DNA of 64,000 nucleotides from Escherichia phage FL08. Position numbers and translations under genes: made by a program. Position 1 is the first letter of the stretch, and each line of letters opens with the position of its first letter. The stretch is from sequence record PP400785. One strand, given 5' to 3'. This document shows positions 1 to 32,198 of this stretch, in pieces. The notes below the pieces were generated by a model, which saw only the letters and a list, made by a program, of their open reading frames with translations, had not been told where the DNA came from and did no database searches.

Positions 1-84
1 TTCAGCATATTCAGCTAATTTAGCTTTAGCTTCTTTGTTATCATCAAGAGCCTTCAGCTCTGCAATATAATCTTTATCTATCAT
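1..84 (-). CDS. Partial CDS (first ~28 codons; continues beyond window start), hypothetical protein
   Basis: ATG at 82-84 on minus strand preceded by GAGGA Shine-Dalgarno; reading frame runs off the window edge (MIDKDYIAELKALDDNKEAKAKLAEYAE...). Confidence 0.4.
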   Translation of the reverse strand, partial: MIDKDYIAELKALDDNKEAKAKLAEYAE

Positions 85-97
85 AATATTTCCTCAG

Positions 98-105
98 TAT
101 AAATA
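98..105 (+). promoter_or_regulatory. Late promoter TATAAATA upstream of uvsW
   Basis: Exact TATAAATA about 30 nt upstream of the uvsW ATG. Confidence 0.65.
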
Positions 106-134
106 TAGATATATTTATTACATGGTATTTAGAC

Positions 135-1646
135 ATGACTGACATTAAAGTACATTTTTATGATTTTAGTCACGTGAGAATTGACTGTGAAGAAAGTACA
201 TTTCATGAACTCCGTGATTTCTTTAGCTTTGAAGCTGATGGGTATCGTTTTAATCCGAAATACAAATATGGCCACTGGGATGGACGAATCCGTCTTTTAG
301 ATTATAATCGTCTTCTTCCATTCGGCTTAGTCGGGCAAATTAAAAAGTTCTGTGATAACTTTGGCTATAAAGCCTGGATTGACCCACAAATTAACGAAAA
401 AGAAGAATTATCAAGAAAAGATTTTGATGAATGGCTTTCTAAATTAGAAATCTATTCAGGAAATAAAAGAATTGAACCACACTGGTATCAAAAAGATGCA
501 GTGTTCGAAGGATTAGTTAATCGTCGTAGAATTCTTAATCTTCCAACATCTGCAGGTAAATCTTTAATTCAAGCTTTGCTTGCGCGATATTATTTGGAAA
601 ATTATGAAGGTAAAATTCTTATCATTGTTCCAACAACTGCTTTAACAACTCAGATGGCTGATGACTTCGTTGACTATCGTTTATTCAGTCATGCAATGAT
701 AAAGAAAATAGGTGGAGGAGCATCAAAAGATGATAAATATAAAAATGATGCACCAGTCGTTGTTGGTACATGGCAAACTGTAGTAAAACAACCGAAAGAA
801 TGGTTCTCACAGTTTGGAATGATGATGAATGATGAATGCCATCTTGCTACAGGAAAAAGTATTTCATCCATCATATCAGGTTTAAATAACTGCATGTTCA
901 AATTCGGTTTGTCTGGTTCATTACGTGATGGCAAAGCTAATATCATGCAGTATGTTGGGATGTTTGGTGAAATATTTAAACCAGTAACGACTTCTAAATT
1001 AATGGAAGATGGACAAGTAACTGAGTTAAAAATTAATAGTATTTTTCTTCGCTATCCCGATGAGTTCACTACTAAATTAAAGGGAAAAACTTACCAAGAA
1101 GAAATAAAAATTATTACTGGGCTCAGTAAAAGAAATAAATGGATCGCTAAATTAGCTATTAAGCTTGCGCAAAAAGATGAAAACGCTTTTGTCATGTTTA
1201 AACATGTATCGCATGGTAAAGCTATTTTTGATTTAATTAAAAATGAATACGATAAAGTTTATTACGTATCAGGGGAAGTTGATACCGAAACCCGCAATAT
1301 AATGAAAACCTTAGCTGAAAATGGTAAAGGAATAATTATAGTAGCGAGTTATGGTGTATTTTCTACTGGTATTTCAGTTAAAAATCTGCATCATGTTGTT
1401 TTAGCGCACGGCGTTAAATCAAAAATCATTGTATTACAAACAATCGGTCGTGTATTACGTAAGCATGGTTCTAAAACAATCGCAACGGTCTGGGACCTCA
1501 TAGATGACGCGGGCGTAGTTTCTAAATCAAAAACATCTTCTAAAAAATACTCGCATTTAAACTATCTTTTAAAACATGGACTTGATCGTATTCAGCGTTA
1601 TGCTGATGAAAAGTTTAATTATGTGATGAAAGAGGTTAAACTTTGA
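135..1646 (+). CDS. uvsW: UvsW DNA/RNA helicase (SF2)
   Basis: 503 aa; Walker A PTSAGKS, DECH box, helicase C-terminal motifs; N-terminus MTDIKVHFYDFSHVRIDCEE matches T4 UvsW as I recall it; preceded by late promoter TATAAATA. Confidence 0.92.
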   Translation: MTDIKVHFYDFSHVRIDCEESTFHELRDFFSFEADGYRFNPKYKYGHWDGRIRLLDYNRLLPFGLVGQIKKFCDNFGYKAWIDPQINEKEELSRKDFDEWLSKLEIYSGNKRIEPHWYQKDAVFEGLVNRRRILNLPTSAGKSLIQALLARYYLENYEGKILIIVPTTALTTQMADDFVDYRLFSHAMIKKIGGGASKDDKYKNDAPVVVGTWQTVVKQPKEWFSQFGMMMNDECHLATGKSISSIISGLNNCMFKFGLSGSLRDGKANIMQYVGMFGEIFKPVTTSKLMEDGQVTELKINSIFLRYPDEFTTKLKGKTYQEEIKIITGLSKRNKWIAKLAIKLAQKDENAFVMFKHVSHGKAIFDLIKNEYDKVYYVSGEVDTETRNIMKTLAENGKGIIIVASYGVFSTGISVKNLHHVVLAHGVKSKIIVLQTIGRVLRKHGSKTIATVWDLIDDAGVVSKSKTSSKKYSHLNYLLKHGLDRIQRYADEKFNYVMKEVKL

Positions 1647-2335
1647 ATTATAAATTAATATATGATAATTTAATTAATAGAGCCCAGAATCGGGCTCGCC
1701 TTAATGGATACACTGAAACACATCATATAATTCCTAGATGTATGGGTGGTACAAATGATAAGTGTAATTTAGTAGAACTAACGGCTGAAGAACATTTTAT
1801 AGCCCATAAACTTTTAGCTAAAATTCATCCAAACCATTACGGTATAATTAAAGCTGTTATATGTATGGGGATGAATTCAAATACTCATGAAAGACACGTC
1901 AATAAATCTTACGCATGGGAACGTCGTAAAATGGCAGAACTTCAATCCGGCGAAGGTAATCCATTTTACGGAAAACACCATACGGAAGAACATAAACAAT
2001 ATATGTCAAAACTCATGAAAAGTCGTCCAATTACATGGGGAAATAAAATTAGTAAAACTAAAAGAATGAACCCAACGAAATGGACTGAAGAAGCTAAAAG
2101 ATTACATTCAATCAATCAATCGGGTAAAAATAACGGCATGTATGGAAGGAAACATTCCGCTAAATCTATTCAGAAAATTAAAGATAACATGCCAGATAAT
2201 TCAGGAGCTAATAACCCAGCTGCTAAACCTATAGAAGTAAATGGTGTTAAGTATAAATGTATGAAAGATGCTTCTAAAGCTACTGGATTATCAATGTACA
2301 AACTAAGAATACTTAGAAAAACAGTTAATTTATAA
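1643..2335 (+). CDS. Free-standing HNH homing endonuclease (MobE-like)
   Basis: 230 aa; HNH motif HHIIPRCMGGTNDKCNLVELTAEEHFIAH; repeated NPFYGKHH / NGMYGRKH NUMOD-like segments; TTG start overlapping the uvsW stop with AGAGG SD upstream; paralogous N-terminus to the HNH ORF at 29293-29934. Confidence 0.8.
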   Translation: MNYKLIYDNLINRAQNRARLNGYTETHHIIPRCMGGTNDKCNLVELTAEEHFIAHKLLAKIHPNHYGIIKAVICMGMNSNTHERHVNKSYAWERRKMAELQSGEGNPFYGKHHTEEHKQYMSKLMKSRPITWGNKISKTKRMNPTKWTEEAKRLHSINQSGKNNGMYGRKHSAKSIQKIKDNMPDNSGANNPAAKPIEVNGVKYKCMKDASKATGLSMYKLRILRKTVNL

Positions 2336-2348
2336 GGGCTTCGGCCCT

Positions 2349-2591
2349 TTGGAGAAAAAGATGTTACTAGAATTTAAACAATTTCTTTATGAAGCTTCTA
2401 TTGATGAATTTATGGGTAAAATTGCCTCTTGTCAAACATTAGAAGGTCTAGAAGAACTTGAAGCTTATTACAAGAAAAGAGTTAAAGAAACTGAATTAAA
2501 AGATACTGATGACATCTCTGTGAGAGATGCTTTGGCAGGAAAAAGAGCTGAATTAGAAGATTCAGACGATGAAGTAGAAGAAAGCTTTTAA
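2349..2591 (+). CDS. uvsW.1: UvsW.1-like small acidic protein
   Basis: 80 aa, GGAG SD, position downstream of uvsW; size close to T4 UvsW.1 (76 aa). Confidence 0.7.
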   Translation: MEKKMLLEFKQFLYEASIDEFMGKIASCQTLEGLEELEAYYKKRVKETELKDTDDISVRDALAGKRAELEDSDDEVEESF

Positions 2592-2646
2592 ATTAAAAAA
2601 GGCCCAACCAAAAAGGAAGGGCCAAAACTATAGACTAAAGGTCACA

Positions 2647-2814
2647 CTATAGCAAAAGTTGTGTTTCATTTAATTGTTCTTCCGAACTTTCTGAAACTGG
2701 TAGTTCTTTAATGTAATTATAACAAGGCCCAGGATGTACAGGACCTTTGTCTGTTTCAACAACCAATGCAGAATCGATTGGAGTTTTACAGACAACGCAA
2801 ATCTTATCTGACAT
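2647..2814 (-). CDS. Small Cys-containing protein (uvsY.-2 position)
   Basis: 55 aa ORF not in the supplied track (under 60 aa): MSDKICVVCKTPIDSALVVETDKGPVHPGPCYNYIKELPVSESSEEQLNETQLLL; GAGGAG SD; late promoter TATAAATA just upstream. Confidence 0.55.
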   Translation of the reverse strand: MSDKICVVCKTPIDSALVVETDKGPVHPGPCYNYIKELPVSESSEEQLNETQLLL

Positions 2815-2841
2815 GATTGTCTCCTCTAAATTATATATATC

Positions 2842-2849
2842 TATTTATA
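2842..2849 (-). promoter_or_regulatory. Late promoter TATAAATA (minus strand) upstream of the uvsY.-2-like ORF
   Basis: Plus-strand TATTTATA = TATAAATA on minus strand, ~28 nt upstream of ATG at 2814. Confidence 0.5.
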
Positions 2850-3069
2850 TAACTCTCATATGCATATCAATGCCCATATCTTTAGAATAAAAATATTCAT
2901 CAAGATATCCGGCAAATTTTCCTTTAATATAAAGGACATCTTCACCGCACGGGTGGTCGGCCAGGATACGAATATCCTGACGCTTAAGATTATGCTTTTT
3001 CATTAAGAATTGAATTTCCGTTTCAAATTCTTCTTCATAATTAAAAGCATCATCAATGCTATATCTCAT
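2845..3069 (-). CDS. Hypothetical protein (uvsY.-1 position)
   Basis: 74 aa ORF immediately downstream of uvsY in same orientation, stop/start overlap with uvsY. Confidence 0.6.
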   Translation of the reverse strand: MRYSIDDAFNYEEEFETEIQFLMKKHNLKRQDIRILADHPCGEDVLYIKGKFAGYLDEYFYSKDMGIDMHMRVI

Positions 3070-26502: not shown

Positions 26503-28090
<1,588 letters not shown>

Positions 28091-28120
28091 AATAAAATGG
28101 GCCTTGCGGCCCACTCCTTA
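28091..28120 (-). promoter_or_regulatory. denA translation initiation region: SD - GNRA hairpin - AUG
   Basis: Minus RNA: UAAGGAGU, then GGGCC-GCAA-GGCCC hairpin, then AUUUUAUU, then AUG; SD sits directly after the nrdB stop codon. Confidence 0.55.
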
Positions 28121-29296
28121 AAAGTATTTTTTAAAACTCATCATAACTTTATCATCAACATCATTATCAATCTGTGCAACAAGGTAAGATGACAGTTCTA
28201 CTTCTTGTGGCGCGGATTGAACATTATCAGAATTAAGATATTCACGAATCCAAGGATACGGATGTTTAACCGGAGCATCGGTAATTGGGCATGGAAGACC
28301 ACACTGTTTCATACGAGATACAGTTAAGTAATCAATAAAGCTCCACATGCTATTTGTATTTAATCCAGGAACATCGCCGTCTTTAAATAAATGAACTGCC
28401 CAATCTTTTTCTTGGCGGTTAACTTCCATGAAAATATCAACTGCTTCTTGTTCACACTCTTGAGCAATTTTAACCCATTCATCGCCATCAGTACCAGATT
28501 GAAGTTGACGAATAATATATTGGGTGCCTTTAAGGTGAAGCTGTTCATCGCGTGCAATGAACTTCATAATCTTGGCATTACCTTCCATGATTTCCATGTT
28601 TTTATGGAAGTTAAAGGTACATGCGAAAGATACATAAAAACGAATAGCTTCCAATGCGTTGATTACATGCAAACAGAGGTAAAGAGATTTCATTAGCTCA
28701 TGCTTCCAATATGTCTCATGCTCAATAGCATCTTCAATAACGTCTTCGTCTGCATTAATTTCTTTTTGGTATTCGATATCAGCTTTAGCGTTTTCCCAAT
28801 AACGAGTTTTAATCAGAACATCATCATAATAACGTCCAATGGATTCAGCACGTTTCATAATAGCTTCATCTAATACAATCTCATCAAATACCTTCGATGG
28901 ATCAGTATAAAGATTTCGCATGATATGTGTATATGAACGGCTGTGAATAGTTTCACTAAAAGTCCATGTAGCAACCCATGTATCAAGACTCGGGTCTGAA
29001 ATTAATGACATAAGTACAGCAGATGGCGCACGACCCTGAATGCTATCCAAAAGTGATTGATACTTCAGGTTATTAGTAAAAATATTTTGCTGATACTGAG
29101 GAAGCTTATTAAACTGTGCAGCATCCATCATTAAGTTTACTTCTTCAGGACGCCAAAAAAATGATAAAGATTTCTCAATAAGTTCTTCAAATACTCTATG
29201 TCGTTGAATATCATATCGAGCTAAACCCAATCCAGAACCAAAAAACATCGGCTCAGTCAAAATATTAACAGGGGATGTATTAAAAACTGTACTCAT
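28118..29296 (-). CDS. nrdB: Ribonucleotide reductase small subunit (class Ia)
   Basis: 392 aa uninterrupted; diiron-tyrosyl radical family sequence; no intron. Confidence 0.93.
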   Translation of the reverse strand: MSTVFNTSPVNILTEPMFFGSGLGLARYDIQRHRVFEELIEKSLSFFWRPEEVNLMMDAAQFNKLPQYQQNIFTNNLKYQSLLDSIQGRAPSAVLMSLISDPSLDTWVATWTFSETIHSRSYTHIMRNLYTDPSKVFDEIVLDEAIMKRAESIGRYYDDVLIKTRYWENAKADIEYQKEINADEDVIEDAIEHETYWKHELMKSLYLCLHVINALEAIRFYVSFACTFNFHKNMEIMEGNAKIMKFIARDEQLHLKGTQYIIRQLQSGTDGDEWVKIAQECEQEAVDIFMEVNRQEKDWAVHLFKDGDVPGLNTNSMWSFIDYLTVSRMKQCGLPCPITDAPVKHPYPWIREYLNSDNVQSAPQEVELSSYLVAQIDNDVDDKVMMSFKKYF

Positions 29297-29934
29297 TTAG
29301 AATCCTTAAATTTACATTTATCATAATGCCATCTTAAAGCATTGCCTTTATTAACTTTCTTGCCACAATGCGGACAAGGCGGATACTCTGTACCTTGCTT
29401 AGTTCTCAAAGAAATCAAATCACGGGTTTCTTTAGTATGAGGAACATCTCTTGTCGGAGAGATTGTACCATACATCGGATTAAGCACGCCGACTTTAGCA
29501 GCAGCTATATTCTTTTTAGCTTCTTCGGTTTTAGGTTTTCTCATGCGAGCTAAATGCTCTTTGGTAAATTTCCTTCCTTTAAGGGCTCTACTTATCTTTT
29601 CTCTGGTTTCCATAGAAACTTCACGTCCTGTAGCAGCTTCAGATAAACGTCGTCTACCTAATTCGTACAGTTGAGAAGAAATTTTATATGAGCGATTTTT
29701 ACCAGTCAAGCACATTAAACCAAAAGCTTTCTTTAATCCTGGAGTGTCATATATTTTACATAAAAGCCAATGAGCTATAAAATGCTCTCTACCTGTTAAT
29801 TCAACTAAATTTTCCTTATCATCAGAACCTCCCATACATTTAGGGATTATATGATGTGTCTCTTTATATTCTAGTAAAGATTCCCGAGCCTGAGCTCGGG
29901 AAATTAGGTCGTTATAGATTTTTTGATAATTCAT
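29293..29934 (-). CDS. mobE: HNH homing endonuclease (MobE-like, between nrdA and nrdB)
   Basis: 213 aa; HNH motif HHIIPKCMGGSDDKENLVELTGREHFIAH; C-terminal CPHCGKK zinc-finger-like; start overlaps nrdA stop (TAATG). Confidence 0.8.
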   Translation of the reverse strand: MNYQKIYNDLISRAQARESLLEYKETHHIIPKCMGGSDDKENLVELTGREHFIAHWLLCKIYDTPGLKKAFGLMCLTGKNRSYKISSQLYELGRRRLSEAATGREVSMETREKISRALKGRKFTKEHLARMRKPKTEEAKKNIAAAKVGVLNPMYGTISPTRDVPHTKETRDLISLRTKQGTEYPPCPHCGKKVNKGNALRWHYDKCKFKDSK

Positions 29935-32198
29935 TACAATTTACATGCTGCGCAATCATCGGCTTTTGGAGTTTCTATTTCATAATCATCAGTACCAGAA
30001 CCATCGCGGGTATTATGATAATAGAAATTTTTTCCGCCAAAATACCAAAAATACAAAAGGTCATCAATCATTATTGACATTGGAACCTTGCCTTTAGGGA
30101 AGATTTGGGGGTCATAGTATGTATTCGCCGAAGCTGATTGACAAACCCATTTCAGCATAATAGCTACCTGCGTAAGATAAGGTTTATTACCTTTCTTAGC
30201 TAATTTCCATGTATAGTCGTAAAGGTCTATGTTATGCTCAATATTGGGCACGACCTGATTAAAGGAGCCCTCTTTTGATTCTTTAACAGAGACTGGTCCA
30301 CGTGGAGGCTCGATACCGTTTGTACTGTTAGAAACTTGGGAAGATGACTCACATGGCATAAGTGCTGATAATGTGCTATTACGGATGCCAAAGAGCTTAA
30401 GGTCTTCCCGCAGCGACGACCAGTCACAAACGTATTTTGGAGCTGCGATTTGGTCAATCTTTTTATTGTACCAGTCGATAGGTAATTCGCCTCGAGACCA
30501 ACGAGTGTCTGAATAATATTCGCAAGGTCCTTTTTCTTTGGCGAGCTTAATGGATGCTTTAATGAGTCCATACTGTAATCTCTCAAATAGTTCATGTGTT
30601 AAATCGTTAGCATCTTCATAAGAAGCAAAGTTACTTGCCAGCCAAGCTGCATAGTTGGTAACACCTACGCCAAGGTTTCGACGCTTTTTAGCTTTTTCTG
30701 CTTCAGGAACTGGATATCCTTGATAATCCAAAAGATTATCAAGAGCACGAACTTGAACTTCTGCCAATTCATTAATTTTATCTTGGTCTTGCCAGTCAAA
30801 ATTATCTAGTACGAATGCAGAGAGAGTACACAATCCAATTTCAGCATCAGGACTGTTCACATCATTTGTTGGAATAGCAATTTCACAGCACAAGTTACTC
30901 TGACGAATAGGTGCCTTTTCACGAATAAACGGAGTATAGTTATTCGTATTATCAATGAACTGCACATAAATCCTTGCTGTTCCTGAACGTTCAGTCATGA
31001 GCAATTCAAATAGTTCACGGGCTTTAATACGCTTTTTACGAATATTAGGGTCTTTTTCTGCTGCTTCGTATAATTCACGGAAACGGTCTTGGTCTTTAAA
31101 ATAAGAATAATAAAGCTCGCCACCCATTTCATGCGGACTGAACAAAGTAATGTAATCGTTCTTTCCGAATCGTTCCATCATCAAATCATTCAGCTGAACA
31201 CCATAATCCATATGACGAATGCGGTTTTCTTCTACGCCTTTGTTATTTTTCAAAACGAGAAGATTTTCAACTTCCAAATGCCAAATAGGATAATAAGCAG
31301 TAGCAGCGCCGCCACGAATTCCACCCTGTGAGCATGATTTAACTGCAGTCTGAAAATGTTTCCAAAAAGGAATAACACCAGTATGACGTACTTCACCCAT
31401 GCCAATCTTAGAACCTTCGGCACGAATCATACCAACATTAATACCAATTCCAGCGCGTTTAGAGATATATTCAACAATTGAAGCGGAAGCCTTATTGATA
31501 GACTTCAATGAATCACCTGCCTCAATAACAACACATGAACTAAACTGTCGAGTCGGAGTACGACAACCAGCCATAATAGGAGTTGGCAATGAAATCTGTC
31601 GAGTAGATACTGCTTCATAAAAACGGATAACATGTTTTAATCTATCAACAGATTCATCTTGATGCAGTGCCATTCCAATAGTCATAAATGCAAACTGCGG
31701 AGTTTCATAAATTTGACCGGTGGTTTTATCTTTGACTAGATATTTTTCTTTTAATTGCATCGCTCCGGAATAAGTAAATTCCATATCCCGCTCGTGCTTA
31801 ATTTTTGATTCTAAAAATGTAATTTCTTCCGCAGAATATTTTGACAATAATTCAGGGTCATATTTCCCTTCATTTACGCAATAAGAAATATGGTCAATAA
31901 ATGAACGCGGTTCATACTGCCCGTAAACATGCTTACGAAGAGCAAACATTAAACAGCGTGCAGCTACATATTGATAATCAGGCTCTTCAACCGAAATAGA
32001 ATTCGCAGCAGCCTTAATGACAATAGTCTGAATATCATCAGTTGTCATTCCATCACGGAGATAAGATTTAATATTTTCATATAATTCATAAGGATCTACT
32101 GATGTTCCTTCAGCTGCCCAAGATAAAACTTTAATAATTTTTTGTGGGTCGAAGCTCTGAGAAACACCACTACTTTTGATAACATTAATTAATTGCAT
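29934..32198 (-). CDS. nrdA: Ribonucleotide reductase large subunit (class Ia)
   Basis: 754 aa; ATP-cone N-terminus, active-site Cys region; T4 NrdA length. Confidence 0.95.
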   Translation of the reverse strand: MQLINVIKSSGVSQSFDPQKIIKVLSWAAEGTSVDPYELYENIKSYLRDGMTTDDIQTIVIKAAANSISVEEPDYQYVAARCLMFALRKHVYGQYEPRSFIDHISYCVNEGKYDPELLSKYSAEEITFLESKIKHERDMEFTYSGAMQLKEKYLVKDKTTGQIYETPQFAFMTIGMALHQDESVDRLKHVIRFYEAVSTRQISLPTPIMAGCRTPTRQFSSCVVIEAGDSLKSINKASASIVEYISKRAGIGINVGMIRAEGSKIGMGEVRHTGVIPFWKHFQTAVKSCSQGGIRGGAATAYYPIWHLEVENLLVLKNNKGVEENRIRHMDYGVQLNDLMMERFGKNDYITLFSPHEMGGELYYSYFKDQDRFRELYEAAEKDPNIRKKRIKARELFELLMTERSGTARIYVQFIDNTNNYTPFIREKAPIRQSNLCCEIAIPTNDVNSPDAEIGLCTLSAFVLDNFDWQDQDKINELAEVQVRALDNLLDYQGYPVPEAEKAKKRRNLGVGVTNYAAWLASNFASYEDANDLTHELFERLQYGLIKASIKLAKEKGPCEYYSDTRWSRGELPIDWYNKKIDQIAAPKYVCDWSSLREDLKLFGIRNSTLSALMPCESSSQVSNSTNGIEPPRGPVSVKESKEGSFNQVVPNIEHNIDLYDYTWKLAKKGNKPYLTQVAIMLKWVCQSASANTYYDPQIFPKGKVPMSIMIDDLLYFWYFGGKNFYYHNTRDGSGTDDYEIETPKADDCAACKL

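Follow-up and report, generated by a model that had tools for sequence, protein, structure and literature searches.

Why does the uvsW helicase gene of Escherichia phage FL08 run directly into an endonuclease gene, and is that gene a mobile element? We examined this locus in a stretch of 64,000 nucleotides of the phage (sequence record PP400785; hereafter the window), in which an uninterrupted open reading frame (ORF) of 230 codons overlaps the end of uvsW and is followed by uvsW.1. We think it quite likely that this ORF encodes a free-standing HNH homing endonuclease of the Mob family, carried by a 689-bp mobile cassette (1629..2317) in the 3' end of uvsW. The gene is not new as such, since it is already annotated 'homing endonuclease' in T6 and in many GenBank records. 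Its labels there are nominal and inconsistent, including 'mobD' (PST), 'MobE' (ACG-C40), 'group I intron endonuclease' (G8, G28) and 'hypothetical protein', and are corrected here. Judged by sequence comparison, it is an uncharacterised Mob-family member with the full comparative signature of a homing element, in an architecture conserved in five lineages. A review of T4 mobile elements counts 15 endonuclease genes, none of them at uvsW/uvsW.1 (PMC2988022), and the uvsW tail would be a sixteenth kind of homing-endonuclease site in the T-even repertoire.

Alignment of occupied with empty genomes places the insert within uvsW, five codons 5' of the resident stop. In T4, uvsW ends ...AAT TAC GTA ATG / AAA ACA GTT AAT TTA TAA (KTVNL*; the slash marks the insertion point), followed by the hairpin GGGCTTCGGCCC. 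In FL08 the uvsW frame reads ...ATG AAA GAG GTT AAA CTT TGA across the junction, in a replacement tail brought by the insert, and the resident 18 nt (2318-2335), their frame unchanged, close the endonuclease gene with its final five codons and its stop. A T4 empty-site query matches occupied genomes only from 2318 on, the right flank is the same as in T4 for >100 bp, and every difference falls on the left side. The preliminary description of this DNA had put an HNH ORF exactly between uvsW and uvsW.1; both flanking genes were correctly named, but the insertion is not intergenic, lying instead in the 3' coding end of uvsW. Its account of the start, a TTG overlapping the uvsW stop behind AGAGG, is borne out by the coordinates: the TTG occupies 1643-1645, the TGA stop 1644-1646 and the AGAGG Shine-Dalgarno (SD) sequence 1631-1635, 7 nt 5' of the TTG. 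We take the TTG as the true start because the alignment to the ATG-started ORF at 29293..29934, a paralog described below, begins at residue 1.

The same exchange of tails is seen in other genera. In Dhakavirus PSD2002, uvsW ends AAA GAG GTC CAA ATT TGA, unlike the resident Dhakavirus tail, and the endonuclease gene ends ATG AAA CAG GTG GAT TTA TGA, the same 21 nt that end uvsW in Dhakavirus JS98, where the site is empty. In Gaprivervirus TH40, the endonuclease ends IKQVEI*, as does UvsW. Because AAA GAG GT is common to the replacement tails of Tequatrovirus and Dhakavirus and absent from their resident tails, the replacement tail is part of the cassette. Three lineages start the endonuclease with TTG and two with ATG, and the overlap of the start with the uvsW stop is kept in all five. 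By replacing the tail in this way, an endonuclease gene can invade a coding region and leave the host gene undamaged.

Occupancy was scored in GenBank phage records; a right-junction pattern scan of IMG/VR gave only 3 loci. The full-length gene is found in 48 Tequatrovirus records, among them T6, Yersinia phage PST, G8, G28, ACG-C40, HY03, UFV-AREG1, EC121, ZN18, PYPS2T and pSe_SNUABM_01, and the site is empty in ~450 others, which include T2, RB32, RB33 and, as the preliminary description had supposed, T4. Presence in about a tenth of T-even records (48/~500, ~10%) makes the gene a minority trait, and among these ~500 records presence and absence alternate at one fixed site with identical boundaries. 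The Jiaodavirus count is similar, with 13 occupied records out of ~144 matching at ≥90% identity, so that occupancy is roughly 10% in each of the two genera counted. In protein searches, homologs from this site form a clade of their own (54-100% identity, 247-518 bits; all other homologs ≤141 bits), and every clade member examined sits between uvsW and uvsW.1 and starts 4 nt before the uvsW end. The five occupied lineages are Tequatrovirus, Jiaodavirus (Roth16 and Roth78), Dhakavirus PSD2002, Gaprivervirus TH40 and Morganella phage Rgz1. Between genera, the endonuclease (52-68% identity) is never more conserved than UvsW (64-77%); this argues that the association with the locus is old and led us to reject a recent cross-genus transfer. 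Two irregularities of the public records concern uvsW itself: in Roth16 (1002-2504) and Roth78 it is mislabelled 'U3 small nucleolar RNA-associated SSU processome protein 25', and in the vB_KpnM_GF record indels in the final 40 nt truncate the annotated gene.

We then consider what the ORF encodes. It matches PHROG 655 'homing endonuclease' (3.9e-60) and PHROG 12434 'HNH endonuclease' (7e-10), as well as Pfam NUMOD3 (PF07460, 7.6e-14) in two stretches, and its C-terminus resembles the I-TevI DNA-binding domain (1i3j/1t2t), with a weak I-TevI_DNA-bd match in Pfam (E = 0.029). In an alignment of the ORF with 51 homologs (52 sequences), H28, N42, H51 and H55 are invariant, as are P31 and G36. The AlphaFold model (mean predicted local distance difference test score, pLDDT, 88) has a strand at 25-28, a strand at 43-46 and a helix at 48-61, as expected for an HNH core; searches with the whole model matched nuclease domains weakly. 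The N-terminus, MNYKLIYDNLINRAQ, lines up with the ORF at 29293..29934 from the first residue on; identity in BLASTP is 38% over 183 aa (E = 4e-32), and ~41 of the first 60 residues are the same. The preliminary description had proposed the HNH assignment, this paralogy over the first ~60 residues and the mobE position of the paralog, and all three agree with what we found: the paralog, on the minus strand, lies between nrdA (29934..32198, -) and nrdB (28118..29296, -), and its DNA matches T4 mobE at 95% over 65% of its length. A tblastn search of T4 with the FL08 endonuclease found five places, the best of them mobE (42% over 168 aa). Separately, 62 nt of DNA that encode the HNH core (1712-1773, residues ~24-44) share 93.5% identity with T4 mobB (NC_000866.4 38537-38598) in spite of the distance between the two proteins elsewhere; either strong constraint or gene conversion among mob paralogs could account for it.

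No RNA family, introns included, was matched in an Rfam scan of positions 1000-3000. We reject the label 'group I intron endonuclease', given to copies such as those of G8 and G28, as no intron model matches, uvsW has its own stop and no splicing is needed; each of uvsW, the endonuclease gene and uvsW.1 is an ORF of its own. Taken together, the family matches, the invariant motif, the topology of the model, the match to T4 mobE and the lack of an intron indicate that the product is a free-standing Mob-type HNH endonuclease.

Comparison of occupied and empty uvsW alleles supports the earlier suggestion that the target may lie in uvsW. Nine occupied Tequatrovirus sequences, aligned with eleven empty ones, differ from them by fixed changes at 1559-1625, nine of these being third-position substitutions and one an L/I change; occupied alleles have AAG (1613), TAT (1622) and GTG (1625) where empty ones have AAA, TAC and GTA. 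All 48 occupied records carry the left junction of the window type (≥97.4% identity over 76 nt), and 450 empty records carry a T4-type site of 90 nt, 428 of them at ≥99%, a perfect linkage of the proximal flank differences to the endonuclease (48/48 vs 450). Just upstream, at 1508-1557, lies a divergent non-synonymous patch in which ~24/50 positions differ; the endonuclease is present in 48/52 carriers of this patch. The four empty carriers, OES_C-1 (1501-2305), OES_C-2, OES_C-3 and LH2, turn T4-type at 1558/1559 and look like recombinants or loss events with a common breakpoint. Further upstream, at 1412-1452, two haplotypes are each found with and without the endonuclease, which shows recombination. 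No linked differences were seen in the right flank or in uvsW.1.

The empty site is also conserved between genera. AAA TTT AAY TAC GTA ATG AAA is common to the T4, Mineola and JS98 empty alleles, and across three genera the empty alleles agree at all 24 nt 5' of the insertion point. In the last 12 codons, third positions of the empty site are conserved between genera at 9/12, 8/10 and 7/10, a level that two other stretches of uvsW also reach. Where the five empty alleles (three genera) read TAC, the six occupied ones (five lineages) all read TAT, and GTA too is altered in most of the latter. The perfect linkage and the recurrence of TAC to TAT in five lineages point to a target at or near TACGTAATGAAA. 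The recognition or cleavage site thus probably lies in the last ~140 bp of uvsW, most likely at the insertion point, where the insert splits it, and we infer that the proximal allele changes confer immunity.

These observations suggest the following homing cycle. The late promoter at 98-105 would drive co-transcription of uvsW and the endonuclease gene, with low-level translation of the latter coupled to uvsW termination. In a mixed infection, the enzyme would nick or cut an empty uvsW allele in its last ~140 bp, most likely in GAAAAATTTAAYTACGTAATGAAA, a sequence shared without change by empty alleles from three genera, at the insertion point or beside it. Repair by recombination with the occupied genome would then transfer the cassette plus up to ~135 bp of donor uvsW, and the resulting allele would be immune, its site split by the insert and altered at TAC to TAT, GTA to GTG and AAA to AAG.

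Several points weigh against an HNH enzyme that homes in this way. The Pfam HNH match (PF01844) at residues 23-44 has E = 0.012 and 16.2 bits against a cut-off of 21.4 bits, below threshold on its own; what supports the HNH assignment is therefore the invariant motif together with the paralog, which scores 23.9 bits on the same residues. GTA is kept in TH40 and AAA in PSD2002, leaving TAC to TAT as the only universal change. The linked substitutions could be mere hitch-hiking of a co-converted donor flank and not immunity changes, and the non-synonymous patch at 1508-1557 is an alternative location for the target. The divergence of the endonuclease tracks or exceeds that of UvsW, which fits long vertical residence with losses no less than recurrent homing. 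Finally, our literature search found no paper describing the uvsW-tail endonuclease and no experimental report of its cleavage or biased inheritance.

One alternative is that of an active homing endonuclease that cuts elsewhere, in the patch, further upstream or in uvsW.1, with the proximal changes merely co-converted. Free-standing T4 endonucleases usually cut 100-300 bp from their own genes, and MobE nicks nrdB at nt 122-126 (PMC2790892); the density of differences in the patch and its linkage to the gene would suit a cut of this kind. Moreover, the informative polymorphism is all on the left of the insert, so co-conversion must span the proximal tract wherever the cut falls. We consider this possible but not probable. 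The occupied Jiaodavirus Roth16 retains a T4-like patch (GVKPKSANAKKKYVH), showing that the changed patch is not required there; the TAC to TAT change by the insertion point is the sole one common to the occupied alleles of five lineages; and both the cross-genus identity of the 24 nt preceding the insertion point and the lack of linked differences in the right flank or uvsW.1 favor a target at the uvsW end.

A second alternative is a resident nuclease, passed on vertically, that has stopped homing here or never did, its patchiness reflecting repeated loss through recombination with empty alleles and its retention some other benefit, such as excluding competing phages, DNA processing or supporting uvsW.1 expression. 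Consistent with this, the endonuclease diverges in step with its hosts from genus to genus, giving no hint of recent cross-genus transfer, and the gene is under strong purifying selection, with a pooled ratio of non-synonymous to synonymous substitution rates (dN/dS) of ~0.06 in eight intact copies. The uvsW.1 start overlaps the endonuclease stop in occupied Jiaodavirus, Dhakavirus and Gaprivervirus, so uvsW.1 translation may depend on the endonuclease, and the four phages that have the patch without the gene are consistent with loss. We nevertheless find vertical residence unlikely. Presence and absence have precise, identical boundaries in ~500 genomes, the donor-type flank is fixed on one side only, the empty site is almost invariant, upstream haplotypes are shuffled around a gene found in Tequatrovirus phages of different names (at least 11 RefSeq records), and a frameshifted copy exists; in combination, these give the classical signature of a homing cycle. 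The closest characterised relative, MobE, is mobile (PMC2790892).

A decaying, non-expressed pseudogene, as the weak TTG start, the lack of a promoter of its own in our scans and a 4-bp deletion in the BF15 copy might suggest, is highly improbable given that 8/9 sampled copies are intact at so low a dN/dS, an SD stands 7 nt upstream of the start, the TTG or ATG overlapping the uvsW stop is kept in five lineages and the catalytic residues are invariant. The BF15 copy itself (701-1389) is frameshifted by its deletion and truncated at residue 195, with loss of the C-terminal DNA-binding domain, and looks like a degenerating one. UniRef also holds a 146-aa version from UFV-AREG1.

We next turn to expression of the putative homing endonuclease. 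A pattern scan found no exact late or MotA-type promoter directly upstream of the gene, and a scan for sigma-70 promoters and terminators found no more sites than in shuffled sequence. The exact late-promoter consensus TATAAATA at 98-105 is the probable source of a transcript spanning uvsW and the endonuclease. The uvsW gene is reportedly a late gene. Late co-transcription with uvsW, and coupled, weak translation from the TTG, are the likely mode of expression. A second octamer, TATAAATG at 2252-2259, is a 7/8 match to the late-promoter consensus in the 3' part of the endonuclease gene, ~100 nt 5' of uvsW.1; its conservation does not extend to the Jiaodavirus copy.

Early in the ORF, the FL08 transcript is predicted to form a GC-rich hairpin, and hairpins at ORF nt ~32-57 are also found in four other lineages and in the mobE paralog of the window (z -2.5 to -4.4, from single-sequence folds). 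Their stems are unrelated in sequence between lineages, and the peptide encoded there is variable. The T4 mobE terminator, demonstrated by experiment, has a 9-bp stem and a 4-nt loop, 27 nt after the AUG (PMC2790892), and the FL08 hairpin is the positional counterpart of this internal terminator, although the copies at uvsW have no U-tract. A hairpin at this place may be a family-wide regulatory element. RNAalifold gave no consensus structure over the first 100 nt of the ORFs, a null that reflects MAFFT leaving unrelated stems out of register. At the uvsW/endonuclease junction, a local fold pairs the SD and start with uvsW codons (z -2.4); since RNAalifold found no structure shared by the five lineages at this junction, the hairpin is specific to Tequatrovirus at best.

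The arrangement at both ends of the insert invites a broader, more speculative model. In the empty Mineola and JS98, uvsW and uvsW.1 overlap (ATGA), and in their occupied relatives uvsW.1 overlaps the endonuclease stop instead. Tentatively, the element could be a portable 'tail-swap' cassette that rewrites the end of its host gene and takes over local translation, through SD-in-tail coupling, an addiction-like retention by way of uvsW.1 and a family-wide regulatory hairpin. Were this true, the endonuclease would secure its own translation by coupling to uvsW through the SD built into the substitute tail. In genera with the ATGA overlap, uvsW.1 would be coupled to the endonuclease stop, such that loss or silencing of the endonuclease would lower UvsW.1, and the hairpin would tune expression across Mob genes. 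The features on which these arguments draw are collected in the table.

Features of the uvsW-endonuclease-uvsW.1 locus and of related sites (positions in the window unless a lineage is named)
Feature	Position	Strand	Details
T4 late-promoter consensus	98..105	+	TATAAATA, exact; ~30 nt 5' of uvsW ATG; pattern scan
uvsW helicase gene	135..1646	+	503 aa; ends ...NYVMKEVKL* here; ORF list, aligned to T4 and T6 uvsW
uvsW haplotype linked to endonuclease	1508..1628	+	Candidate immunity/co-conversion tract; alignment of 9 occupied and 11 empty sequences
Replacement uvsW tail	1629..1646	+	AAA GAG GTT AAA CTT TGA (KEVKL*); brought by insert; holds SD AGAGG, overlaps TTG start
Endonuclease ORF	1643..2335	+	230 aa, uninterrupted; predicted free-standing Mob-type HNH homing endonuclease gene
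GC-rich hairpin	1680..1697	+	GAGCCC-AGAATC-GGGCTC; ORF nt 38-55; free energy (dG) -13.2, z -2.65; without following U-tract
HNH catalytic core	1721..1807	+	Residues 27-55 (HHIIPRCMGG...N42...EH51FIAH55); alignment, model, Pfam HNH
NUMOD3 DNA-binding motif	1922..2008	+	Residues 94-122, best of two stretches; Pfam PF07460
I-TevI-like C-terminal DNA-binding region	2111..2296	+	Residues ~157-218; with helix-turn-helix
Resident uvsW tail	2318..2335	+	AAA ACA GTT AAT TTA TAA (KTVNL*); same as T4 uvsW end
UUCG-loop hairpin	2336..2347	+	GGGCTTCGGCCC; 3' of endonuclease stop here, of uvsW stop in T4; sequence identical in T4
uvsW.1 SD	2351-2354	+	GGAG; next after GGGCTTCGGCCC hairpin
uvsW.1	2361..2591	+	76 aa from ATG; Pfam UvsW-1 PF11637 1.7e-30, PHROG 1143; start agrees with T4/RB33 annotation
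Paralogous Mob endonuclease	29293..29934	-	213 aa; nrdA/nrdB (mobE) position; ATG overlaps nrdA stop as TAATG
Hairpin of mobE paralog	29881-29902	-	9-bp stem
Hairpin, lineage L020 (Roth16)	2534-2552		
Hairpin, lineage L025	3033-3052		
Hairpin, lineage L029	3032-3052		
Hairpin, lineage L027	3038-3057		

The surroundings of the two endonuclease genes in FL08 add some detail. Orthologs of uvsW have UvsW_N, DEAD and Helicase_C Pfam domains. The segE gene, present between inh and uvsW in T6, PST and many others, is missing in FL08 (window 1-134): relative to T6 there is a gap of ~614 bp (T6 1376-1993) where segE would sit, and uvsW starts at 135 with no gene between. T6 uvsW is bordered by two unrelated homing endonuclease genes, segE and the 3' one, and FL08 uvsW by the 3' one only. 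At the other locus, FL08 nrdB (28118-29296, -) is a continuous ORF of 392 aa without sign of a group I intron, with the mobE allele upstream. T4 nrdB is interrupted by a group I intron (I-TevIII). The neighboring GIY-YIG ORF of 144 aa (27680-28114) matches PHROG 1111 'endonuclease' and is probably denA.

The locus offers a direct way to study homing by a Mob enzyme. As the site is empty in T4 and occupied in T6, T6 x T4 and T6 x T2 pairs can test homing directly, and the candidate target is well delimited, to ~30 bp at the uvsW end with three synonymous differences. Mob nicking enzymes are otherwise hard to study, and MobE could be neither cloned nor assayed in vitro (PMC2790892). With uvsW set between segE and the 3' endonuclease gene, T6 also provides a small model for how such elements bound genetic exchange.

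Among known systems, T4 MobE is the closest. It nicks nrdB in a polymorphic stretch near its own gene, its start overlaps the upstream stop and it has a 5' internal hairpin (PMC2790892, PMC2988022). Like MobE, the uvsW-tail endonuclease has an N-terminal HNH domain of the same family, with 38% identity to the mobE allele in the window; it is promoterless, with a start overlapping the upstream stop; it has a GC-rich hairpin ~27-35 nt into its ORF (PMC2790892); and it is sporadic among T-evens, with clustered substitutions in the neighboring gene between alleles with and without it. Unlike MobE, it sits at another locus, with uvsW rather than nrdB as neighbor and probable target; its C-terminal half consists of two NUMOD3 motifs and an I-TevI-like helix-turn-helix; its hairpin is without a poly(U) tract; and its insert lies within the coding end of the upstream gene, the tail of which it replaces. 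Nicking and mobility have been demonstrated for MobE, whereas for the uvsW-tail endonuclease both are proposed from sequence comparison. T4 SegE, whose gene lies between inh and uvsW, is the known element targeting uvsW (PMC2988022, Table 1). The uvsW-tail endonuclease resembles it as a free-standing homing endonuclease at the same gene, but SegE belongs to the unrelated GIY-YIG family and lies on the 5' side.

Other parallels concern protein build and mode of insertion. Like I-TevI and I-HmuI, the uvsW-tail endonuclease would have an extended modular build, with a nuclease domain, NUMOD3-type linker motifs and a C-terminal helix-turn-helix; I-HmuI is of modular structure, and our searches did not recover it. 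Those enzymes are encoded in group I introns, in contrast to the intronless locus here, and the nuclease domain of I-TevI is GIY-YIG, not HNH. As with Aeh1 mobE in nrdA and T4 mobA in gene 39/60, an endonuclease gene lies within a host coding region and host function is preserved. The mitochondrial atp6 element of Allomyces reportedly carries a replacement C-terminus for atp6, and the FL08 insert likewise supplies a substitute 3' end for its host gene and displaces the resident one. Unlike gene-disrupting insertions, it replaces just 5-6 codons, leaves the helicase in one piece and reuses the displaced tail, in frame, as the C-terminus of the endonuclease.

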